A stretch of 64,000 nucleotides of DNA from positions 1 through 64,000 of the IMG/VR virus record IMGVR_UViG_3300037470_001029; one strand, written 5' to 3'. Numbering within the stretch: the first letter of the stretch is position 1; each line of letters begins with the position of its first letter. The translations under genes were made by a program, and so were the position numbers. The notes beneath the pieces are model-generated. The model searched no databases and had not been told where the DNA came from. It worked only from the letters and a program-made list of their open reading frames with translations. The DNA is from a virus. This document shows positions 5,564-17,055 of this stretch, one piece after another.

Positions 5564-5832
5564 TTGACGAGTCCTTTATCCAGTAGAGCCTTCAGCGTCG
5601 GATTGGTCTTTGCCTCCTCTTCCAGTCGACGACGATCGAGCGCGGCGCCGGCCTTGACGAAATCGAACTGCGCTGCCGGGGGCGTAACGACAACTGGAGC
5701 CGGCATCGGGTCCGGCACGTTGTGCTCTCCAAGCCATGCCTGGTACTGCTTCCACTCCGCCATCTTCGGCGTGATTACCAGGCCAGATGGGCGGTGGAAG
5801 ACGCCGACCATGCGCAGTTCGTAATCGGCCAT
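5560..5832 (-). CDS. tail fibre assembly/chaperone-like protein
   Basis: Start ATG 5832; EWKQYQAWLGEHNVPDP motif typical of small fibre-associated proteins. Confidence 0.5.
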   Translation of the reverse strand: MADYELRMVGVFHRPSGLVITPKMAEWKQYQAWLGEHNVPDPMPAPVVVTPPAAQFDFVKAGAALDRRRLEEEAKTNPTLKALLDKGLVK

Positions 5833-6755
5833 CACACGACCCCTCCCTTGACCTGCGACGCGTTGTTGCCGCCGAGCCAGGTGATGACGACGCCGTTGGT
5901 GCCGATCGCCAGACCTGTGGAACCGCCAGCGCCCGCATCGTATGTACCCGAGCCGCTCTGTCCGCTCTCCCCGCACATCCCGCCGTTGCCGGCGTTATGC
6001 CCACCGAAGCCGTAAAAAGTCTCGTCGCCAGAGGAACCTGTTTGATCGGGTTCGAGTGCATTAGACGGTGCCCCTCCCTGACCACCAACGAGTCCTTGCC
6101 CGCCACCGCCGCCGCCAATAGTGCGCTCCAAACCGGTTGTCCATCCACCTCCGCCGCCTCCGCCGCCTCCACCCCAGATGTAGCCGTTCGTATTGTCTAT
6201 GGAAAGACCTGACGGGCACGTGGTGAGGGCGATGGCCCGAACACCGAGCCCGGCGCCAGAAAACGCAGCTCCACCGCCGCCGCCCTGGCCCATGATGTTG
6301 CCGTTATTGATCAGCCTCAGGTCGCTGCCAACGGAGAACGTCGCCCAGACCATCGAGTAATCGGTCACGCCGGGAGAGGCTTCATTCCCGACGTATATGC
6401 CGGAGTTCACGGTGACCCAGATGCGGGCCGGCGTGCCCGACACCCACCCGGCGACCTGCGCGGCAGCATTCACGTCGTAGCGATAGGAGGTCGACGCGAT
6501 GGTGAGCAGGAAGGTAGGTAGCCCGCCGCCGCGCGCCATCTTCATCATGCCGAAGCCGACGAACATCCCGTGCTGGAAGATGACCGTGAACCGGTCGGCC
6601 TGCGCCCACCCGGCCTTCTCCCGGTACTCGGCGACCAGCCGCTGCTCCGGCGGCATGGCGGCATGCACCAGCGACGGCAGCAGCACCGGGACCGTGAGAA
6701 GCGCGGCGGCGATGCGCCTCGCGCAGCGCGCGCGGACCTTGTCGATGGTGCTCAT
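5832..6755 (-). CDS. glycine-rich receptor-recognition protein (T-even gp38-like polyglycine motifs)
   Basis: Start ATG 6755; INNGNIMGQGGGGG, IDNTNGYIWGGGGGGGGGG. Confidence 0.55.
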   Translation of the reverse strand: MSTIDKVRARCARRIAAALLTVPVLLPSLVHAAMPPEQRLVAEYREKAGWAQADRFTVIFQHGMFVGFGMMKMARGGGLPTFLLTIASTSYRYDVNAAAQVAGWVSGTPARIWVTVNSGIYVGNEASPGVTDYSMVWATFSVGSDLRLINNGNIMGQGGGGGAAFSGAGLGVRAIALTTCPSGLSIDNTNGYIWGGGGGGGGGGWTTGLERTIGGGGGGQGLVGGQGGAPSNALEPDQTGSSGDETFYGFGGHNAGNGGMCGESGQSGSGTYDAGAGGSTGLAIGTNGVVITWLGGNNASQVKGGVV

Positions 6756-7723
6756 CCGCGCTTGCCCATGTGCATGACGTCCCAGACGGTCCCGCCGTCG
6801 CGCGTCGTCGCCGAGAACAGGTTGCGGCCAGCGGCCTCGAGAGTCGTGTCGTTCGGTCGATTGGACGAGCCGCCCATCCACTTAAAGGACGCCGGCCAGG
6901 TGATGCGGCCGTCGATGTCGCGGTCGCCGTTGATGATCTCGAACATGATGGTCTGAGACTTTCCGGCCGCCGGCGGGTTGGAGACGGCGACCGTCATGGT
7001 GTGTGAGAGCGTCGCGCTCGGCGTCATCGCGAAGTGGCCGTACAGGGAGGCGTTCATCGTCGCTGTGGCGCCGTTGCCGATCGCTCCGAGGTCGACGAAG
7101 TTCTCACGGACCCGCGTGGCATCGACCGGCACGGCCGTGCTGTTTCCGACCCCGGTAGAGCCGTTGAAGCTCGACGTGCCGGCGATCGCCATCGCCGTCA
7201 GGCTCGCCGTCGATGCAGAGCCGAGCCCGTGCACCGAGGTTCCTGTGGCGGCGACGTGCGTCGCCAGGCCGGCTACGACGCGCAGGCACTTCGCCCAGAT
7301 CTCGAAGATCAGCGTGGTGATCCCGCCGCTGAAGGTCGTCACCGTGATGTTGTCGTTGGCGTCGAACGTGTTCGACTGCGTGGATCCCATCTGCGTCCAC
7401 ACCGCGGACTCCGGTGTCGCGTTCCAGTCGGCGCCGCTCGTCCAGAACCAGCCGACGGTCAGCGGCTGCACCGTGCCCGTGCCGCCCCAGGTCATCTGCA
7501 TCTTGAAGCCGATGGAGAGCGTGGCGTTCATCCAGTAGAGCCGCTGCGGACGGTCGACGCCGGGGCCGGTGCCCGTCACGCGCGACTGCACCCACCCCGG
7601 GATGCGCCCGGTGATCACGCCGTCGCGCAGGGCGCGCAGGTCGTTCAGCGCGCTGGTCGAGAACGGCGTCGGTGCTTGTGAGGCCTGCGGGTTTGCTGAG
7701 TCGAATTCGGTGTAGGCGGGCAT
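6752..7723 (-). CDS. minor tail/fibre-associated virion protein
   Basis: 323 aa, beta-rich, ITWPASFKW motif; follows tail-tip gene. Confidence 0.6.
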   Translation of the reverse strand: MPAYTEFDSANPQASQAPTPFSTSALNDLRALRDGVITGRIPGWVQSRVTGTGPGVDRPQRLYWMNATLSIGFKMQMTWGGTGTVQPLTVGWFWTSGADWNATPESAVWTQMGSTQSNTFDANDNITVTTFSGGITTLIFEIWAKCLRVVAGLATHVAATGTSVHGLGSASTASLTAMAIAGTSSFNGSTGVGNSTAVPVDATRVRENFVDLGAIGNGATATMNASLYGHFAMTPSATLSHTMTVAVSNPPAAGKSQTIMFEIINGDRDIDGRITWPASFKWMGGSSNRPNDTTLEAAGRNLFSATTRDGGTVWDVMHMGKRG

Positions 7724-7724
7724 T

Positions 7725-10451
7725 TTAGAATCCCTTGAATGCGTACTGCGTCTTCTCTAGTCCTGATGGGGCTTGGGTGATCGCCGTCCCGGCGGCGTCG
7801 AACACGTAAAGCTTGAAGGAGTTGGCTGGGCCGACGCGGGAGTTGGTAACCAAAGAATTTGCGCTAAGTGAGTTTACGGCGGGCTCCCCACTAGACCAAA
7901 TAGAAAGCCTGTCGGCGCCCGCGCCGTCAGTGACGCGAATGCTTCGGTAAAGAATCTTCGCCGCTCCCGATGCTGCATTGCCGTGATTTACAAGCTGCCA
8001 CAGGTTTACGGTCTTCCCGACATACGCCGCCAAAGAAATCTTGCGCGAGTACCACTGCCCGCGTGCAATGGCGTCCATCGCCACGCTCGGTGCGTAGCCG
8101 TTGTAACCGTTCTGATCGGTAGCTAAGTTGGTGTCCGTCACGTCCGTGAATGTCACCCTCATGCCACCGTTAGAGAATGACGCCACAACTGGATTTGATG
8201 GATCAATAAATACGTCGTACTCAAGGTAGTCGCCAGAGGCTATTACGCGGGCGGAATTGTGAATGTTCCAGAACAGATAGTTATCGCCGCTGCCGTTGAA
8301 GTCATAAGCGACCACCAAGCCGTCTTGCGGGTGCAGCAGCACGCGGTCAGCGACCGGCATGCGAGCACGGTTGAGCGCGCCACCGAGATCCACCGGGTTG
8401 AGCACCGTCAACTGCAAGTCCTGAGCACCGACGTAAGCGCCATCCAGCTCCACGAGGGTGCCTGCGGCGTCCACGGCGATCTGGCCAGACTCGCTGCGGG
8501 CGAGCGCTATCAGCGAGATCTTCGGCGGCTGGTCGACCAGCATCGTGCTCGTCGTCAGTGCCTCGATCACGGGGCGGATGAATCGCGTGGCGCCCTTCCA
8601 CGTCTGCCCGGGCTGGCGCGTCCAGTCTGAGCCGTTGTCGCTCGTCTCCAGATAATAGTCGAGCGAGCCGCTGAGCGCCGTTGCGTTCGGCGTCAACTGC
8701 CAGTCGCCGGTGACCGTCGTGCCGATGTCCCACGACTCGCCGACGAATTTCGACGTGGCGGAGGCGTGGTAGGAGGCGACCGGGTTGGCTCCGGAGCTCA
8801 GCGGGTCTGGCATCACCGTACCCCACTGGTCCGAGGCGACCGACGTCGCCCAGCGCTGCTTCCAGACGCCCTCGAGCATCGGGATGGCAACGAGGTTGGC
8901 GCCGGTGAGGTTCGGGTTGACGAACTCGCGGTCCTGAATGAATGCGTCCGAGTCGCTGGTGATCGTCACGTCGACCGTCGTCGCCGTCGGGCTGCGCAGG
9001 CCAACGGAGTCAAGGGCCTTGACGCCGAACCGCCACGTGCCAATCGGCAGGCCGCTGAACTGCGCGCGCAGGCCGTCGATCCGGTCGATCAAGGTGGCGG
9101 TGTCGTAGTTGAAGCTGCCGGGGTCGCCGTACTTCCACTCGTAGCGGTCGATGTCGATGTCGACGGCCGCCTCGATCCGAAAGTAGACGGTGCCGCCGAC
9201 CTCGAACGCAGACAGGATCGACGGCACGTTGCCTGGAGGCAGCAGCTTGCCGAGCGCCGTGATGGTGTCTGAGAGGATTGAGCTGACGAAGCCGGGGTCG
9301 TTGAAGGCCGTGACCTCGACCGTGTAGCCGCGGCCCTGCTGCGCAGGCGGCGAGGAATAGGAGAGCCCTTTCGTGGTCCTCTCGTCGACGACCAAGAGGC
9401 CGTCCATCAGGCGCACGCGGTAGGTGACCGGGTAGTAGTGCGTCGAGGCCGTCCACGAGACCTTGACCCGGCTCTGGTAGATGAAGCCGCGGCTGAGGGA
9501 GTCGCTCGCCTGGTCCTTCTCGAGGTAGACCTCCTCCGCTAGCACCAGAGACGTCGGCGCCGCGACCGACGTGATGGAAGGCAGCCCGGTGTCAGGCGTA
9601 TCCGGCGTCGTCTGTACCGTGTCGCTGAACACGTTGGCGTCGTATTTCCTGAGGCCGATCAGCCAGCGGCCGTAGCCGCGATCCACGCGCCCCATCCCAC
9701 GCATCGGCGTGGCGGTGAGGCCGATGTCGTCTGTGACCGTGAAGCGGTCACCAAGCGTCACCTTGAGGCCGTCCTCGAACACGCCTAGAACCGTCTCGAT
9801 CGCCTCGAGGTTGTAGTGATTCAACCGCTCGACGGCGAACCGGTACGCCTGCGAGTAGCGGCGGATGCCAGGCATGTTGATCCGCGCCTTGCGCCGCGTG
9901 GTGGGCGACATGTCGGCAACGGCGTAGTCCATCGCCCACGGCTTGACGTCCGTTTTAAAATAACCAATCTCGACCACGTTCGGGCGGTTGCGGATTCCTC
10001 GCTTGAAGATCGCCGGCAGCGGGTCCTGATCGATGTTTGCGGCCGTCAGCACGTGGTCAGCCGCGGCGCGCGGCATGTCGGCGATCAGCAAGGCGGTGTG
10101 GCCGTGGTAGTCAACCCACGCCGGCACGTACCCTCGCATCACGTCGATCCACTCCTCGACGTTCCTGGACTCGGCGATCGTCAGCGTGATTAAGCAGCGC
10201 TTCTCCCCGCCGATGATTCCGTCATCGTAGTCGGCGGCCTCAATCACGAGCTGCCAGTCCACGGGGCGACGCGCACCGTAAACCGTGCTGTTCAGCCAGT
10301 CTGCCGTGCACAACGCCGGGTTGTCGCTCCACAGGTACGCGGCGGCGGACTGAGCGTAGTAGTTGAGCACAGGCTCCGGGCCGACGGGAACGTAAGGTCC
10401 GGCCGAGGAGCCGGCCTCGAGTTGCGCGTAGGTGATGGTGCCAACGGTCAA
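7725..10451 (-). CDS. tail-tip/central fibre (gpJ-like) protein, C-terminal part with FN3-like domains
   Basis: WSDNPALC, RPNVVEIGY, FN3-like motifs (VSWTAS, YTVEVTAFN, WRFGVKALD); TTG start overlaps upstream stop. Confidence 0.75.
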   Translation of the reverse strand: MTVGTITYAQLEAGSSAGPYVPVGPEPVLNYYAQSAAAYLWSDNPALCTADWLNSTVYGARRPVDWQLVIEAADYDDGIIGGEKRCLITLTIAESRNVEEWIDVMRGYVPAWVDYHGHTALLIADMPRAAADHVLTAANIDQDPLPAIFKRGIRNRPNVVEIGYFKTDVKPWAMDYAVADMSPTTRRKARINMPGIRRYSQAYRFAVERLNHYNLEAIETVLGVFEDGLKVTLGDRFTVTDDIGLTATPMRGMGRVDRGYGRWLIGLRKYDANVFSDTVQTTPDTPDTGLPSITSVAAPTSLVLAEEVYLEKDQASDSLSRGFIYQSRVKVSWTASTHYYPVTYRVRLMDGLLVVDERTTKGLSYSSPPAQQGRGYTVEVTAFNDPGFVSSILSDTITALGKLLPPGNVPSILSAFEVGGTVYFRIEAAVDIDIDRYEWKYGDPGSFNYDTATLIDRIDGLRAQFSGLPIGTWRFGVKALDSVGLRSPTATTVDVTITSDSDAFIQDREFVNPNLTGANLVAIPMLEGVWKQRWATSVASDQWGTVMPDPLSSGANPVASYHASATSKFVGESWDIGTTVTGDWQLTPNATALSGSLDYYLETSDNGSDWTRQPGQTWKGATRFIRPVIEALTTSTMLVDQPPKISLIALARSESGQIAVDAAGTLVELDGAYVGAQDLQLTVLNPVDLGGALNRARMPVADRVLLHPQDGLVVAYDFNGSGDNYLFWNIHNSARVIASGDYLEYDVFIDPSNPVVASFSNGGMRVTFTDVTDTNLATDQNGYNGYAPSVAMDAIARGQWYSRKISLAAYVGKTVNLWQLVNHGNAASGAAKILYRSIRVTDGAGADRLSIWSSGEPAVNSLSANSLVTNSRVGPANSFKLYVFDAAGTAITQAPSGLEKTQYAFKGF

Positions 10452-11620
10452 GGAAGCTCTGCTCCGGTGAATATCAGGGAACCGCTTGCATTGGTGTAGT
10501 AGGGGAAATACCCGTCACCAGCCGTCAACCCCCCGGCCACCGTGATGACGATAAAGGACGCCCACTGACTACTCGGTGCGCCCCAGGAGATTGCTGTCGC
10601 GGCAATACCACCAGATCCCGTCGATAGCGAAATGTGGGTTGGATCGGAAACAACGATGCCCGTCACACGAACCCTCGTATGAACCGGGAATGTGATGCTT
10701 GCCACACAGGCTGTAGATCCAGTTGCGCGCCCAGCTCCCGGGATCATGTCGGCGGTAGAAGTCGACCGGAAAGCGGGCAGGTAGCGCTGACAGAGTGCTA
10801 GCTCTTCCTGTGAATCTCTAACCTCGACCAGCCCATTTGGAAGTTCACCCAGAAAAAGGCGCACATCGGCGATCTGGAAGATGTTGCCAATGGTGTCGAC
10901 GCAGTTGACTTGATTCGCAGTGCCAACTAGTGAGCCTGTCTGCCAGCCGGCGACGCCCTGCGAATTCGTCCCGACGCCAAGCACGAAGTCCAAGCGAGCA
11001 CCTGTGCCATTGGCGTAGTCCCACGTACCCGCCGAGGGTGACGCAGGAATTTGAATGACGGCCTCCTCCCAAGTGTTCGTCGTGGTCTGGGTGTATTCCG
11101 CGATGAACGAGCGGTCGTAAGCGCCATTGCGGAGCGAGATGCAGTAGGTGCCGGTCTTGGTGTGCTTGTGCCAGAAGCGAAGCGTCAGTGGGAGCTGGGC
11201 ATACCCAAGCCAGCGGTAGCCCTCTATTCTGGTCTGCAGGTTTACGATGTCCGCCGCAGCCATCGCAGCATCTGCTGTGGTTACGGCAACCTTCATGCTG
11301 TGCGTTATCAGCCGCCCGGCTTGCGCCATGGTAGGCGCATCCGCTTCCCGGGTGATTGTGAACACGGCATCTTGGGTGAATGAAATCCACATGTCGGCCG
11401 AACGACCACCGGATGCAATTGCAGGGAAGCTCGTTCCGCGCTGCCACGGGTTCGTCGAAAAATCGCCGCCGATAACGGCGTTGCGCAATCCACGTCCGAG
11501 AGCCAGGATTGCCTCTAGCGTTGTGCGGTAGTTCGCGCCCGCCCGCGCTATCGGAATGATGTCGGCGCTCGGGTCGAGAACCCCCGCGCTACCCCAATCA
11601 GACCACTTGTCGTTTGCCAT
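10448..11620 (-). CDS. tail fibre/spike-like protein inserted within tail-tip gene
   Basis: RNAVIGGDFSTNPWQRG and EELALCQRY fibre motifs; visibly more AT-rich than flanks. Confidence 0.7.
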   Translation of the reverse strand: MANDKWSDWGSAGVLDPSADIIPIARAGANYRTTLEAILALGRGLRNAVIGGDFSTNPWQRGTSFPAIASGGRSADMWISFTQDAVFTITREADAPTMAQAGRLITHSMKVAVTTADAAMAAADIVNLQTRIEGYRWLGYAQLPLTLRFWHKHTKTGTYCISLRNGAYDRSFIAEYTQTTTNTWEEAVIQIPASPSAGTWDYANGTGARLDFVLGVGTNSQGVAGWQTGSLVGTANQVNCVDTIGNIFQIADVRLFLGELPNGLVEVRDSQEELALCQRYLPAFRSTSTADMIPGAGRATGSTACVASITFPVHTRVRVTGIVVSDPTHISLSTGSGGIAATAISWGAPSSQWASFIVITVAGGLTAGDGYFPYYTNASGSLIFTGAELP

Positions 11621-11621
11621 G

Positions 11622-12614
11622 TCACGCCTCTTTCAGCATTGAAGAAGTGCCGTCCTCTTTCAGCATGATCTCGCCGTTCTCCTTGAGCATCACGCTGTTC
11701 GGCTCGAACACCTCGTAGATCGGGTCCACGACGACGTTGCCTTCGCGAGTAACGGTGAAGGTCTTTGGCGCCGCCTGCGTGGCCATCGCGTCGCCGATGG
11801 CGTCAGTGACCGCAGGGGTTGTCTCGCCGTAGCTCAGCTCGAGGTAACCAGTGCCGGCCATCGACAACGTGTGCTCTCCAACCGGCAGGAAGATCGTCTG
11901 CTTCGTCGGGGCTCCGGAATTGATGAAGCGGTAGCCGCCGATCACCGTTTCCAGCCGGGGGTCGTACACCTTCTTGCCCTTGACGAGCACGGTCAGCGCG
12001 GGGAACCCCGGCGTCAGCCCAGCGGGGAAGCGGGCGACGATGTACGCGGTGCCCGGCATCGTCTCGTCGAAGCCGGGGATCGCTGCTGCGAGCGTCGGAT
12101 CGATGCCCTGCGTCGCGGTGCCGAGGTAGGTGGCGATGTAGACCGCCTTGTCGGCCTGCATGTGGTCGGGGTGCAGGTACGCCTGCGTGTTGCCGACGGG
12201 CGCGAGGTAAGGCACCAACGTGTCGTCACCGAGGTCGGGGTCAGTGATCGACTCGATCTCCCCCTCGCACAGGATAAGGCAGACCACCAGGTAGCCGGCG
12301 TGCACGCGGATCGTGTAGATCAGGCCCGCCGTGCGCTCCGGGCCGCCGTAGATCACCGGGATGACGCTGTCGGCCGATGCCGCAACGATCTGGACCTCGC
12401 TCGACTGCGCGACGGTCTGGTTGATCCTGTTCGGCGTCGCCTGCCCGGTCGGGTCGTCCGGGAGAAGTGAGGCGTCCGGAATGACGTTTGGCCGGCGGCC
12501 GATCCCGGTCTGCCGGTTCGGGCCGAGGGAAGGCCCGCCGCCGCGGCCGAGCGGGCTCCTGCCGACCCCTTCGGGGTTGGTGTCGGCGGGTGTGATGGGG
12601 CCGGAGACAGCCAC
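11622..12614 (-). CDS. tail-tip (gpJ-like) protein, N-terminal part
   Basis: IPVIYG, LCEGEIESI, VKGKKVYDPR motifs of tail-hub N-termini. Confidence 0.7.
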   Translation of the reverse strand: MAVSGPITPADTNPEGVGRSPLGRGGGPSLGPNRQTGIGRRPNVIPDASLLPDDPTGQATPNRINQTVAQSSEVQIVAASADSVIPVIYGGPERTAGLIYTIRVHAGYLVVCLILCEGEIESITDPDLGDDTLVPYLAPVGNTQAYLHPDHMQADKAVYIATYLGTATQGIDPTLAAAIPGFDETMPGTAYIVARFPAGLTPGFPALTVLVKGKKVYDPRLETVIGGYRFINSGAPTKQTIFLPVGEHTLSMAGTGYLELSYGETTPAVTDAIGDAMATQAAPKTFTVTREGNVVVDPIYEVFEPNSVMLKENGEIMLKEDGTSSMLKEA

Positions 12615-12615
12615 G

Positions 12616-12966
12616 CTAAACCTCGATCAGTTCAAGGTTGCACTCGTACTGCCCGATGTCGAGCATCGGCAGGTCGATGTCGTTCGGCCCGAAGATCATG
12701 GTGTGGTTCGTCACGACCAGCACACCGTTGACCTCCCGCGAATAAATGTAGTTGAAAGTGATGGCGCGGTTTGCGTCGTAGAACGCCCTCAACGTCTCGT
12801 AGGCGGCTCCCTTGAGCCAGAGGTGCAGGCTGAGATCCAGCTTGCGCCCCGTGCTCGTCATGCGCGCCTTGACGCTGTTCGCCCGCGTGAGCGAGACGAT
12901 TTTCGGGTCGCGCCACCGCTCCGACGTGCCCCTGGCGATGGTCGGAAGGGTCGGGAAATCAGCCAC
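12616..12966 (-). CDS. minor tail protein (distal-tail-like)
   Basis: Position after TMP; 116 aa ending LELIEV. Confidence 0.55.
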   Translation of the reverse strand: MADFPTLPTIARGTSERWRDPKIVSLTRANSVKARMTSTGRKLDLSLHLWLKGAAYETLRAFYDANRAITFNYIYSREVNGVLVVTNHTMIFGPNDIDLPMLDIGQYECNLELIEV

Positions 12967-13492
12967 GGTGCGGCTCCAGAATGAAGGTAGTGGTTCCCCA
13001 AGGAATCTTCGAGCCGCGCGGCAGCGCGTACTTGAAGCCGTTGTAGACGTCCACGCGGCGCCGCGGCCCCTTCGCGTAAGCCGACTGATTCGAAATGAGC
13101 CTCGAATCGATGTAGTCGGGGTTTATCGTCGTGTCGTCGAACACGAGCTGGCCGAGATACTGCGGGTGATCGAGTACCTCGCGGTCGACCTGGTAGATGT
13201 CAATCGTAACGTCCGCCATGTCAGCGTTGAGGAAGGCGCTGCCCAGCTCGTTGCCGTGGTTCGCCGCGCGCAGGCGGCCGGAGATCAGGGCACCGGCCTC
13301 CCACTTGAGCCCGGTGACCTCGAAGTCCAGATCGGCCCACGGCACCACGCCGCCGGCCGAAATGGAGACGTCCACCGAGCCGCCGTTGGACCACCGCATC
13401 ACCAGGTCGGCGTTAATCTGGATCAGGTAAAAGATCTGCGTGATGACCTGGTCGAACCGGGTCTGCAGCGTGGCCGGGATCAGGCGCGGCAT
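12959..13492 (-). CDS. minor tail protein
   Basis: Immediately follows TMP; beta-rich 177 aa ending IPWG region. Confidence 0.55.
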   Translation of the reverse strand: MPRLIPATLQTRFDQVITQIFYLIQINADLVMRWSNGGSVDVSISAGGVVPWADLDFEVTGLKWEAGALISGRLRAANHGNELGSAFLNADMADVTIDIYQVDREVLDHPQYLGQLVFDDTTINPDYIDSRLISNQSAYAKGPRRRVDVYNGFKYALPRGSKIPWGTTTFILEPHRG

Positions 13493-13494
13493 CG

Positions 13495-16400
13495 TCAGCC
13501 CCCGTCGTTCACGACGGTCGTGTTGACCCGGTTATCTTCGACGCTGATCCCGACATCGACGCGGTGTGTGGTGTTCGCGTTGGTGTTCGCGGCCTGGAGC
13601 TGCGTGTTCGCCGCAGCCGTCTGCGTCGCCGCCCCGGCGGTGATCGCCTCCTTGATGGCGTCCAGCGCCGATTGCATCTGCGTCGCGGCCGTGGTCTGGA
13701 TGTCGGTCAGGTGCGTGGTGATCGCGCTCTGCGCCGCGCGGCCGTCCTCGAGGAATTGGGTGCGCAGCGCCGTCTGCTGCTCGGGCGAGAGCAGGCTCCA
13801 CGCCGACGAGATCGACGAGGTTACGATCCCGGCCTGACGCTGGATCTCCGCCGGGTCAGTCGAGAGCAGCGCCGCGTCCCGCGCATCGTTGGCCTGCCGC
13901 TGGTAGAACTCATACTGCTGCTGCGCCGTCATCCCGGACAGCTCGATGGACTGGAGTACCGTGTCGAACATCCCAGTGACCGCCAGCCTGACCTGCTCGA
14001 TGCTTGCGAGCAACTGGACCTGCGCGTTGTAGTAGTCGACCGTCGCCTGCGCGAGCGCCTGCGTTGATTCGAGACTTCCGTCGTACGCTTCGAGCTGGGC
14101 GCGGATCGCCCGGTCGTTGTTGCTCAGCGCGGTCTGGAATTGGTTCGACGACTCGTAGAGCATCGTCGCCACGTCCTCCATCGGGCTGCGGCTGACCACT
14201 TCGAAGATGGTCACCAACGCAACGATCCCGTCGATCAGCTCCGCCTGGGTTCCCCTGAACTTGTCGATGTAGCTCCGGATGTAGCCGGTCGCCTCTCCAA
14301 GGACGAGCGCCGCCTGCTCGACGAACACGTCATTCAAGAACTGCGCGATAGCAGCGTCCACTTCCTCTTGCCCGGAGGTGCTCGTGAGCTGGAGGACGAA
14401 CTCGTGCGTGTAGTTCTCCAGGATCGCGGCGGCGTCCACCCCGATCAGCTTGCCGAGCGCGACCATCTGCTTGTGGATCTGGGCGAGCGCATCGGTGAAC
14501 GGCGCTGCCTGATCCGCCGTCAGCTCCTCGCTCTCCGTCCAGCGGCGGTCGCTGCGGAACCAGCCGCCGGCCTGCGAATAGTCCTGCCACGACCTCCCAC
14601 CCTCGATCTCACCGGCGCCGGTGACCGTGCCACTGATCCCGGATGCGTCGGCCTGCGTCGCACGGCGGCCCCAGATCCGCGTGTGCAGGGACGAGCCGCT
14701 GAGCAGCGAGGCCGCGCGGTCGCCGAGGCCCAGGCTGCGCAGGAGGCGGTCGCCGGTCAAAGGACCGCCAGGCATATCGGCAATCCCGCTCTGGTCGTCC
14801 GCCCGCCAGCCGCGCTGGTACATGGCGTCGTTTGCGATCATCGCTGCGATGACAATCGCCACAATACCGGCAACGGCCATCCCGCTCATCGGTGTTGCAC
14901 CAGCCGCGGCCGTCGAAGAACCGCCGCCGACCACGTTGCCGAATGTAGCGGCCGTAACCTGCCCGCCTGCCGCCGTAGTAGCCCCAGTGCCGGTCAGCGC
15001 ACCCCACGCAGTCGAACCGCCCTGGTAGGCGCTCCATGCGCCGCTCGCATACTCGTACACCGCGCCGGCCGTGCTACCCTGCCCAGCAGCACTAGCCGCA
15101 ATCGACAGAGCGCCGTTGCCGGTGATGTTCGCAGCAAGGTTCAGCACCATCTTCGTCGCGAACAGTTGGATTAGCTCGGCGAAGAACTGCTTCCACATCC
15201 GCTTGAGCATATCAACAGCGTTCTCGTTGTCGACGATCACAGCGGTCAGGAACGTACCGATGTAGTTGCCGACCTCGGCCCATAACGAGATCTGGTCTTG
15301 AACATGCCGGCGCAGCTCCTTCTCGCTCTGCTTATTCGCCTCCTTCTCGTCGATCAAGCGCTGCTCGGCCGCGGACTTGCTCATCTTGCCCATTGCGATT
15401 AAGCCGTCCTCATACTCCTTGATCTGCGCCTCGATGTACTTGACCCACCCAGCGTCATCGAGGTCGCGCATCTTGTTCTGTTCCGCGTGAAAGGCTTCAA
15501 GCGCCTTCAGCTCGTCCGCGAGCGCCTTGCTCTGCTCTCGCCTCAGCTCGTCCGCGGATTTCTTCGCCTCCTGAAGACGCTTCGCGTACATCGCCTTCTC
15601 TTTGGCTTGCCTTGCCAGGATAGCGGCCTCCTGCCCGGCGATTGCCTTGGCGTCCTGCTCCGCTATCAGTTTCGCGTGGGCCACGTGGGCCGCCTGCGCC
15701 GCGTCGGCGGCGACCTTGTCCTTGTCGGCGGCGAGCCCGAGCGCCTGGCGAAGCCGGAGGGAGATTTCGAGCACAGCGTTCGCCGCCTTGATCGGCGCCG
15801 TGTCGCCGATTACCTTCAGGAATTCGGCCCACCAGTCCTTCGCCGTGCGCACCGCGTCGGCCATCAGGCTGACGTTGTGGGCGAGGTTGTCCATCATCGT
15901 GTTGACCTTCTCGCCCTCCTCCGGTGTGCCGCGCCAGGCGCGGAGCAGATCGTCCCACGCCTTCTGCAACGGGGTCAGCCCCTCGTTATGCAGGCCGTCG
16001 ATCCGCCCGTGGAGCGCCTCGAGCGCGATAGCCTGGATCCCGGCGGCATCGCCAACCTCGACCATCGCCTGGACCTGCTTGTACTGGTCGAAGGTCAAGA
16101 TGTTGTACTTCTCGTCGAGCGCGATCACGCCGGTCAACGGCTTGCCGAGAGCCGCGGCGAGCTCCTCGGCGGCGCCGGCCGCATCCACGCCCATCGCGCG
16201 CGCGAAGTCCGGGACCATTCCCGTCAGCTCGCCGAACATCTCCCGACCGATGGCTCCCTGCTTGGCGAAGGACTGCACGACCTTCATCGCCATCTCTTCC
16301 GAGACGTTGCTCACCTTCTTGAGGGTCTCGACGTAAGTAGACAGCTCGCCGCTCGAGACTATCCCAGCGCGGCCGGTGCCGGCAAGCAGAGCCCCGGTTG

Positions 16401-17055
16401 CGCCGATGCTCTGGTTGAACTTTTCGATGTCGACGCCGTGCTTTATCCAGACGCCGAATGCGGCGCCGACCGCCAGCGCCGGGGCAAGCATCGCCGCGAG
16501 CCCCTTAACCGCCGCCCACGAATGGGTGGCAAGCTGGGCGAGCTGGCGCAGCGCCATCGGGAAATCGCCGCGCATCAGGGCCTGGGCCATCTGCATGAGG
16601 TCCGTCTTGGCGCGCTGGGAGAACGAGCCCACCTTTGCTCCGGTCTCGTCCACGACGCCACCCATGTCCTGGAGGACCTTGATCGCCTGTTCAGTCTCCT
16701 TGTTGTAGCTGCCTTGCGCACCACGCAATGCCGCAATCGCGGCCGTCGCCTCATCGGCCGACATCTTGTAGTTCTTGAGGGCGCTTGCCGCGACCTCCTC
16801 GGCCTTCGCCTGCTGCTGCACCGCCTGCGTGGCGCTGTCGATCGACCTTGTCGTGTGCTCGAAACGGGCCTTGACCTGTTCGAGAGTCTCGCCGGTGCGC
16901 TTCATGACACTTTGGTATGCCATGTCTTCGTTGGATAGCCGCTTGACCTGCGCCTCGGTGCGCCCGCCCGCCTCGGTCACCGAGTCGAGCGCCGACTTCG
17001 CCGTGACGGCGGACGTGGAGTCGATCTCGATGCCCAGGGAAGCGATGTCGGTCAT
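13495..17055 (-). CDS. tail tape measure protein
   Basis: 1186 aa, Ala-rich helical, MTDIASLGIEIDS start; follows chaperone pair. Confidence 0.9.
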   Translation of the reverse strand: MTDIASLGIEIDSTSAVTAKSALDSVTEAGGRTEAQVKRLSNEDMAYQSVMKRTGETLEQVKARFEHTTRSIDSATQAVQQQAKAEEVAASALKNYKMSADEATAAIAALRGAQGSYNKETEQAIKVLQDMGGVVDETGAKVGSFSQRAKTDLMQMAQALMRGDFPMALRQLAQLATHSWAAVKGLAAMLAPALAVGAAFGVWIKHGVDIEKFNQSIGATGALLAGTGRAGIVSSGELSTYVETLKKVSNVSEEMAMKVVQSFAKQGAIGREMFGELTGMVPDFARAMGVDAAGAAEELAAALGKPLTGVIALDEKYNILTFDQYKQVQAMVEVGDAAGIQAIALEALHGRIDGLHNEGLTPLQKAWDDLLRAWRGTPEEGEKVNTMMDNLAHNVSLMADAVRTAKDWWAEFLKVIGDTAPIKAANAVLEISLRLRQALGLAADKDKVAADAAQAAHVAHAKLIAEQDAKAIAGQEAAILARQAKEKAMYAKRLQEAKKSADELRREQSKALADELKALEAFHAEQNKMRDLDDAGWVKYIEAQIKEYEDGLIAMGKMSKSAAEQRLIDEKEANKQSEKELRRHVQDQISLWAEVGNYIGTFLTAVIVDNENAVDMLKRMWKQFFAELIQLFATKMVLNLAANITGNGALSIAASAAGQGSTAGAVYEYASGAWSAYQGGSTAWGALTGTGATTAAGGQVTAATFGNVVGGGSSTAAAGATPMSGMAVAGIVAIVIAAMIANDAMYQRGWRADDQSGIADMPGGPLTGDRLLRSLGLGDRAASLLSGSSLHTRIWGRRATQADASGISGTVTGAGEIEGGRSWQDYSQAGGWFRSDRRWTESEELTADQAAPFTDALAQIHKQMVALGKLIGVDAAAILENYTHEFVLQLTSTSGQEEVDAAIAQFLNDVFVEQAALVLGEATGYIRSYIDKFRGTQAELIDGIVALVTIFEVVSRSPMEDVATMLYESSNQFQTALSNNDRAIRAQLEAYDGSLESTQALAQATVDYYNAQVQLLASIEQVRLAVTGMFDTVLQSIELSGMTAQQQYEFYQRQANDARDAALLSTDPAEIQRQAGIVTSSISSAWSLLSPEQQTALRTQFLEDGRAAQSAITTHLTDIQTTAATQMQSALDAIKEAITAGAATQTAAANTQLQAANTNANTTHRVDVGISVEDNRVNTTVVNDGG

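Follow-up and report, generated by a model that had tools for sequence, protein, structure and literature searches.

Lambda-J-type tail-tip proteins are essential, and each is taken to consist of a single chain. In branched systems of receptor-binding proteins (RBPs), an anchor domain docks one RBP on another. The nrdA gene of Aeromonas phage Aeh1 was, in its original description, reportedly found split by mobE. In an Aeromonas phage, element-derived peptides are reported to keep the pieces of the split NrdA together (PMC3045599). The gene described here lies in positions 1–64,000 of IMG/VR virus record IMGVR_UViG_3300037470_001029 (the window, that is, the whole 64,000-nucleotide stretch analysed, in whose coordinates all positions are given). 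It is a lambda-J-like tail-tip gene (gpJ) cut in two by a cassette that carries a tail-fibre gene, a real, conserved gene in pieces and a variant of genes split by mobile open reading frames (ORFs) and of modular RBP exchange.

The locus resembles those of the lambda gpJ/Phage-tail_3 (PF13550) siphovirus tail-tip proteins in its profile match to lambda gpJ (E 1.7e-17) and its match to PHROG 31, in its position behind a tape measure gene and two small genes, and in the extra domains that relatives carry at the same site. In contrast to lambda gpJ, the window gene is two ORFs with a 390-aa gene between them rather than one polypeptide that forms a trimeric tip. With T4-like genes in pieces, such as nrdA split by mobE in Aeh1, the locus shares an essential gene split by an inserted ORF, pieces that are thought to reassemble, and an insert peptide that may take part (PMC3045599). 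Unlike in homing-endonuclease splits, however, the insert in the window is a structural fibre with a head resembling a carbohydrate-binding module (CBM), the split lies in a virion protein and no homing mechanism is evident. As in modular and branched RBP systems, an exchangeable head follows a short anchor at the N terminus, and the same head is found behind many N termini, whereas the socket proposed here is a C-terminal repeat peptide of ~20 residues that is present on many virion proteins and travels with the fibre gene. To our knowledge, no such peptide socket has been described.

A tail-tip gene in two pieces

The first gpJ piece, which like all window genes discussed here is on the minus strand, is an ORF of 330 aa (11622–12614) that ends ...TFTVTREGNVVVDP / IYEVFEPNSVMLKENGEIMLKEDGTSSMLKEA before its stop, the slash marking the cut. 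The second is an ORF of 908 aa with a TTG start (7725–10451), which begins (M)TVGTITYAQLEAG, continues to WSDNPALC and is in the frame of the first. Between them, in a different frame, lies a fibre gene of 390 aa (10448–11620). The original prediction took the two outer ORFs to be a gpJ-like N terminus and its continuation, and the homologues bear this out. Besides the C-fragment itself, 108 homologues of it were collected, and 97 of these carry the N-part and the C-part in one chain (BLAST); thus, the unsplit form is the norm and relatives do not always encode the halves separately. Residues ~41–220 of the N-fragment match the N-terminal ~160 residues of the unsplit homologues, and the C-fragment matches them from residue ~40. 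The conserved core of the N-fragment (residues 1–220, to VKGKKVYDPR; 11955–12614) was delimited by the homologue alignment and the match of the fragment to PHROG 5616 "tail fiber protein" (E 4.6e-7), and the AlphaFold2 model of the fragment has a predicted local distance difference test (pLDDT) value above 90 for ~residues 90–210. The C-fragment from WSDNPALC to its end (7725–10331) contains hub domains, FN3-like repeats and a C-terminal domain, as judged from homologues, a match to PHROG 31 "central tail fiber J" (E 5e-18) and the lambda J match, in which a profile of the C-fragment and 14 homologues aligns to residues 243–484 of lambda gpJ (8iyk_J). Neither window piece matches any Pfam family at E ≤0.01, so neither reaches the gathering score of PF13550; gpJ homologues do carry this family, P0002 scoring 31.4 bits against a cutoff of 23. 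In a scan of species genomes, which gave four loci, the N- and C-parts are contiguous and in frame at the DNA level in L049, L050 and L051, and no N-part was detected in L052.

The place of the cut is one at which the family often takes up extra domains. The gap between the KVYDPR and WSDNPAL blocks is at most 20 residues in 83 of the 97 unsplit homologues and 23 in one, while the remaining 13 have 164–576 extra residues there, including, for example, LamG-like and jelly-roll domains. The site is therefore an insertion hot spot, which the alignment of the family profile to lambda J places at the equivalent of lambda J residues ~250–266.

In the window gene this gap holds an accessory domain of ~118 residues. 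The first 78 of these (residues 221–298 of the N-fragment; 11721–11954) end the native part of the N-fragment, match intact copies in L042–L048 and align with the same cut domain in two split relatives described below, P0111 and P0221. The last strand of the domain, TVGTITYAQLEAGSSAGPYVP, opens the C-fragment and, together with a linker, forms its residues 1–40 (10332–10451), matching ...TGSPSIAQLENGAFATSYVP of the intact domain. The intact copy in L042 reads ...FLNSGTPATQNITLTAGTYTLWMEGTGSIAVAAG...PVTFTVSTAGTVTCTVTGSPSIAQLENGAFATSYVP, that is, TFTVSTAGTVTCTV-TGSPSIAQLENGAFATSYVP across the site that matches the window cut, and the window reads ...KTFTVTREGNVVVDP / TVGTITYAQLEAGSSAGPYVP there, ending TFTVTREGNVVVDP / TVGTITYAQLEAGSSAGPYVP. 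L043, L044, L046 and L047 have a domain uninterrupted like that of L042, in other phage proteins, and the copies in L042, L046 and L047 agree with the earlier claim that one beta domain is cut in two. On these alignments, the cut precedes the predicted last strand of the beta-sandwich, with zero domain residues lost. A metagenome scan for the cut domain and the tail that follows it returned four loci; in each of them an intact copy of the domain sits in another protein, and no additional split gpJ was among them. By sequence, residues 75–274 of L042 also match residues 28–234 of the RcGTA head spike fibre Rcc01080 (PDB 6tb9; E 8e-5). That protein is a relative of the accessory domain only, the window's own cut domain having no direct match to it, and it has no bearing on the split or the cassette.

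The inserted cassette (10449–11720) is 1,272 bp long. Its first part (11622–11720) consists of the 32 codons of IYEVFEPNSVMLKENGEIMLKEDGTSSMLKEA and a TGA, and encodes a C-terminal tail of hLxE[D/N]G repeats; its second part is the fibre gene. When the cassette was removed by script, one frame of 1,205 codons without an internal stop resulted, as the original prediction had stated, with a junction that reads EGNVVVDP/TVGTITYA; the junction peptide expected of a full-length joined J is ...VVVDPTVGTITY.... That removal preserves the frame and restores the domain exactly is what would be expected if the cassette were removed at the DNA or RNA level, by site-specific excision, an intron or an inversion, so that all particles, or some of them, had a full-length J of 1,205 aa. 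The excisable cassette offered by the original prediction finds no backing in the other data, however. A search of Rfam over 9800–12400 at E ≤1 returned only mir-564 (29.7 bits, gathering score 80; E 0.045) and SNORA49 (19.5 bits, gathering score 35; E 0.74), both eukaryotic models and neither at gathering score. There are no direct or inverted repeats at 10449 or 11720, and no contig joins 11721 to 10448 in the three sequencing runs whose contigs were used for this check, with the limit that contigs drop rare variants. The GA microhomology noted earlier amounts to G/A (2 nt) at both junctions, for which the chance is ~1 in 16, and was given no weight. In addition, the insert encodes a fibre rather than a recombinase, endonuclease or reverse transcriptase, and its tail is conserved at the protein level. 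Removal of the cassette is thus, in our judgement, very improbable.

The genes of the split locus are closely packed. The TGA of the N-fragment is separated from the ATG of the fibre gene by a one-base spacer, and a Shine-Dalgarno-like AAGAGG for the fibre sits in the last codons of the N-fragment tail. As had been noted before, the TTG of the second half overlaps the fibre stop: the two share TTGA (10448–10451), with the TTG at 10451–10449 and the TGA at 10450–10448. We infer that translation of the C-fragment is coupled to that of the fibre at this overlap. A scan of 7000–13600 for promoters and terminators gave nothing beyond shuffled expectation.

The fibre is foreign in composition. Its GC content is 0.592 and its GC content at third codon positions (GC3) 0.655, in agreement with the earlier description of a more AT-rich 390-aa gene, the difference being stronger at third codon positions: GC3 is 0.893 in the gpJ N-part and 0.891 in the first 1.9 kb of the C-part. 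A GC3 this far below the ~0.89 of its flanks indicates that the fibre came from elsewhere. The fibre opens MANDKWSDWGSAGVLDPSADIIPIARAGANYRTT..., with an anchor in residues ~1–45 (11486–11620) and a head from residue ~46 (RNAVIGGDF...), and this head ends fibres with many different N termini in 41 viral loci. Homologues of the fibre number more than 1,200 database proteins, and it matches PHROG 4492 "tail fiber protein" (E 9e-28) and no Pfam family. In an AlphaFold2 model of the fibre (pLDDT 84), residues 1–32 of the anchor are disordered. Foldseek searches with the modelled head gave CBM4-2, CBM16 and CBM22 as top matches, at template modelling scores (TMt) of 0.5–0.73; among them, 4bj0_A (TMt 0.73) and 2y6j (0.66), at E 2e-6 to 5e-6, cover one of the jelly rolls of the head. 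By this fold similarity, the head is a predicted CBM-like jelly roll, and its sugar binding is putative.

Recurrence of the split in relatives

The split is seen in four metagenomic protein clusters, at identities of 42–52%. P0111 (283 aa, 42% identical), which came from searching 1.84 billion representative proteins, is an N-part cut at the same place, ending ...TTAGTVVVTT / FYEVFVALAPINLEDGTDILLMENGTDYLIKEV before its stop. P0221 (498 aa) has an extra domain first and is then cut at the same strand, ending ...LLMEDNVSRILLEDGSGFIDLE. P0016 (743 aa) and P0019 (736 aa) are 50–52% identical to the C-fragment and start exactly where it does, with MPTPGTLVYVQLENG... and MAAGTIVYVQVENG..., respectively. 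P0111 and P0016 are each on a contig of 8,413 bp and are therefore probably two pieces of one relative. Among 252 collected gpJ-family proteins, the tail was found in four (three by the motif expression and P0111 by eye), and it always ends a truncated N-part.

These relatives bear directly on the possibility that the insertion is a recent and disruptive one, in a defective phage or with the gpJ pieces as pseudogenes, so that a dead genome was sampled by the metagenome. Such an event would fit the foreign composition of the insert and the single assembly that spans it. Against it, both ORFs (330 and 908 codons) are intact, the stop and start overlap tidily, and the split recurs in relatives that are only 42–52% identical, with the tail conserved as protein. 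Recurrence at such distance with the same kind of tail indicates that selection maintains the split and that it was no lethal accident, and we regard a disruptive insertion as distinctly unlikely. Of the alternatives left by the original prediction, the one that the comparisons support better is the gain of an RBP by insertion into a hub gene that now works as two polypeptides; it is favoured because the gene is unsplit in 97 of 108 homologues, the cut is precise, the composition of the insert is foreign and the split recurs in relatives.

In a tree of the shared C-part, the window protein falls among eight unsplit proteins (a nine-row set with 99% SH-aLRT support), and P0016 and P0019 pair elsewhere. 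An approximately unbiased (AU) test on 26 rows rejects the window protein, P0016 and P0019 as one clade (p 8.5e-10); this group was chosen with the first tree already known, and both trees are quick searches. In these trees the split forms are not one clade. Either the cassette entered repeatedly, or the accessory region with the cassette recombines between gpJ genes, or the cassette was precisely lost several times.

Among 57 viral loci found with the C-pieces of the split relatives, an N-part was detectable in 31 and lay in the same ORF as the C-part in all 31; none of the 57 shows a split of the window kind. Two loci, L188 and L191, were considered as split gpJ genes and rejected, having in-frame TAG codons instead. 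In L188, on a viral contig of ~77 kb, the gpJ-like gene (6909–9134, plus strand) has TAG codons at 7596–7598 and 7857–7859 with homology continuous across them, and the same is seen in L191; the pattern looks like reassignment of TAG, not like a split gene. In the phage record collection, neither blastn with 7000–13500 nor tblastn with the N-fragment gave a match, and scans of viral contigs with the N-fragment alone and the C-fragment alone gave no confirmed relative. A word-based protein search with the N-fragment ("near" lengths) returned six weak matches and missed P0111.

Two further N-parts, P0134 and P0253, are cut elsewhere, after WAENPALC...DWDSVGS in the conserved core, and end in the tail CSILAEDGSRLLQEDGARIRKESA; these would be a second, independent kind of split. 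P0030 and P0047 are gpJ relatives that start 50–65 residues before WSDNPAL with unrelated N termini (MFGHFALASHPL... and MLGHGALGSRPL...) and have no detectable N-part, and may represent another split or another architecture.

The relatives also argue against an assembly chimera, in which the assembler would have misplaced a fibre segment inside gpJ. The lower GC of the insert would agree with such an error, as would the lack of an independent long contig across the junctions. However, a contig of 71,475 bp from a sediment-metagenome run holds the whole window and covers 7000–13600 at an even word depth of 13 with zero differences; independent contigs elsewhere encode N-pieces on their own, ending in the same tail, and C-pieces that begin at the same place; and both junctions are codon-exact and match the gene-pair junction of dozens of other phages. 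A chimera is hardly credible. In runs X2 and X3, two sediment metagenomes from different studies, scattered pieces of 151–279 bases at depth 2–4 are identical to the gpJ halves and their neighbours, and the same or a near-identical phage therefore occurs beyond the source sample. These pieces leave 10536–11419 uncovered, a gap that is uninterpretable at depth 2–4. Over the 5' junction of the cassette, ~89 bases (~11696–11784) are matched by another contig in all three runs, which diverges on both sides and has the same loose ends in X1, X2 and X3; the depth in this bin is 21.6 compared with 13. This match may be a related junction in a co-occurring phage.

A tail and anchor-fibre gene pair in unrelated phages

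The tail and the fibre that follows it recur together outside gpJ. A tail was taken to be the end of an upstream ORF that has two hLxE[D/N]G repeats plus half of a third, no more than ~27 residues from the stop, and an anchor gene to be the next gene, within a few bases, opening M-A-D-x-K-I-S-x-L ... P-I-[VA]-[QR]-x-G. The N-fragment of the window ends in this way (MLKENGEIMLKEDGTSSMLKEA), and its tail aligns with the C termini of 15 unrelated virion proteins. The fibre gene, one base on, opens with the anchor, whose nearest relatives in L071, L111 and L113 (MPDTKISALTAGDPAVSTDAIPIARGGANFKVT) are 32–36% identical over 60 residues. In the window there is a single tail and a single anchor, next to each other; an independent hidden Markov model (HMM) found no second anchor.

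When viral contigs were scanned with a degenerate DNA pattern for a pair of hLxE[D/N]G repeats separated by two residues, at least 123 stretches matched, compared with ~2 by our own chance estimate. Eighty loci were examined, giving 78 distinct matches, and in 33 of the 78 the tail lies no more than 27 residues from the end of the ORF (e.g., ...LLLEDGSYLLLEDGSYILLE before the stop). The carriers are baseplate wedge subunits, tail terminators, virion structural proteins, collagen-like fibres and ORFs of 43–80 aa. In L059, L061, L067, L072, L104, L127 and others, the double repeat is internal or near the N terminus, and in some families 85–137 residues follow it.

The next gene behind a tail opens with the anchor MADTKISALTSAGALAGTEPLPIVQGGVTKK... 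or a variant in 14 of 31 cases by regular expression and in 17 of 31 by eye, against a background of 17 in 879 ORFs, and these anchor genes start −26 to +15 bases away (all but one −4 to +15). An anchor HMM was built from the window fibre and two fibre homologues that did not come from the tail scan; in 3,858 frames it matched at 13 distinct places, seven of them directly behind a tail. In the reverse direction, a DNA pattern for MADTKI[ST]xL gave 70 distinct proteins, with a two-repeat tail on the upstream ORF in 14 and a one-repeat tail in three. For the anchor subfamily nearest to the window (...IARxGANYK...), our own reading of this reverse test gives a tail in five of eight. The copy of Pfam searched has no family for the tail or the anchor, and literature searches found no phage paper on the letters of the tail and anchor motifs and, among the papers listed, nothing pertinent on split tail-fibre genes. 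By these comparisons, what was inserted is the region where the two genes of a common pair meet. Beyond what the original prediction held, the split recurs, the split forms are not one clade, and the tail and the fibre N terminus are halves of a widespread gene-pair module.

The tail need not be a socket for the fibre. It could instead clamp the two gpJ pieces together or cap the cut beta-sandwich as a substitute for its last strand, with the fibre attached elsewhere. Indeed, the residues right after the cut (IYEVF in the window, FYEVF in P0111) alternate in a way that recalls the displaced strand (ITYAQLE, LVYVQLE), and PMC3045599 gives a precedent for insert-derived interaction peptides. Against a clamp or cap, the same tail ends many unsplit proteins, such as baseplate wedge and tail terminator proteins, anchor-fibre genes follow it far above chance, and the C-fragment starts at its native strand, with no insert-derived partner peptide. 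We regard this role of the tail as unlikely. That the tail and anchor form a general plug and socket is possible, and we put it forward tentatively and with some doubt. In such a scheme, almost any protein of the virion could bear an accessory fibre, be it a baseplate wedge, tail terminator, head-completion protein or tail tip, and the unit of the last ~25 codons, a stop and a fibre gene would be a portable cassette that lands behind or inside genes, here splitting an essential hub protein at a permissive loop with both pieces functional.

Proposed assembly and meaning of the split tail tip

What is demonstrated is a precise cut, an insert of foreign composition, a split that recurs in relatives and a tail and anchor-fibre pair that recurs in unrelated phages. 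Beyond this, we consider it probable that this lambda-J-like tail-tip gene took up a fibre cassette at a permissive hot spot, that its pieces reassemble, that the tail docks the fibre and that the cassette moves by recombination. The ancestral gpJ would have carried the accessory beta-sandwich where the family often takes extra domains, between KVYDPR and WSDNPAL, and the 1,272-bp cassette would have been inserted just before the last strand of that domain, bringing the 32-codon tail and stop and then the complete anchor-fibre gene. The 330-aa piece (native residues 1–298 and the 32-residue tail) and the 908-aa piece would both be made, the latter by re-initiation at TTGA. Most likely, the two would reassemble noncovalently into a working tail tip, as suggested by their being parts of one fold in unsplit proteins and by the retention of the split in diverged relatives. 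The tail would then be a docking peptide, or socket, for the anchor of the co-inserted fibre, and the tail tip would gain an extra, glycan-binding RBP; two-way gene adjacency is the one basis for this docking step. Recombination would move the cassette between gpJ genes, either by itself or together with the accessory domain around it.

Several observations weigh against this model. The GGAG upstream of the C-fragment TTG is 10 nt away, which is rather far, and the production of both gpJ pieces and the use of the TTG are what we infer from the sequence. The AlphaFold2 model of the N-fragment has pLDDT values below 50 over most of residues 222–330, which hold the accessory domain and the tail. 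Both junctions are spanned by one assembly only, probably the source of the window itself. Among 120 fibre homologues listed, none is on a contig as long as those of the split relatives (8,413 bp for P0111 and P0016, 5,483 bp for P0019, 3,454 bp for P0221, and 4,400 and 4,846 bp for P0134/P0253), and the inserts of those relatives may therefore hold a different gene. For the gene pair, the double repeat is internal or N-terminal in 45 of the 78 distinct matches, so that hLLxE[D/N]G repeats are a structural element more general than a C-terminal tag; 53 of the 70 anchors have no adjacent tail; and the anchor expression was composed after the data had been seen. The predicted 1:1 complex of the tail (46 aa) and anchor (60 aa), with ipSAE values of 0.00 and 0.01, lends docking no support but does not count against it either.

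Around the split gene the tail module is of the siphovirus type. Upstream lie the tape measure gene (13495–17055, from the ORF list) and two small tail genes, of 177 aa (12959–13492) and 116 aa (12616–12966), and the same upstream order of tape measure and two small ORFs is found at the unsplit gpJ of L050; indeed, the order of neighbouring genes around gpJ in L049, L050 and L051 is that of the window. Directly behind gpJ, an ORF of 323 aa (6752–7723) has tblastn matches in the same position in L049, L050 and L052, unsplit relatives included. Further on, a glycine-rich ORF of 349 aa (5832–6881) matches the tail-fibre families phrog_11439 and phrog_2056; called from its first GTG, it overlaps the end of the 323-aa ORF by 130 bases, and its true start is probably further in. 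Within the C-fragment, the last 825 bases (7725–8549) have a GC content of 0.583 and a GC3 of 0.705, compared with 0.891 for the first 1.9 kb, and homologue alignments often end near residue 680–730. The gpJ C-terminal domain, which is probably receptor-binding, thus looks as if it has been exchanged too.

For the tail-tip family, these findings mean that a receptor-binding cassette has cut an essential gene within a surface domain and that the gene has nevertheless been kept by selection in several lineages, and the cut marks a permissive split site in the hub. The pairing of tail and anchor is a more novel lead than the split itself, and binding between them is a candidate interaction. Because the cassette brings a candidate docking peptide and a fibre together, a second adhesin could be gained in a single event. 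If the tail and anchor do bind each other, the attachment of accessory fibres in many uncultured phages would be explained, and in the laboratory the two peptides would offer a small, transferable handle with which binding modules could be fixed to phage particles.

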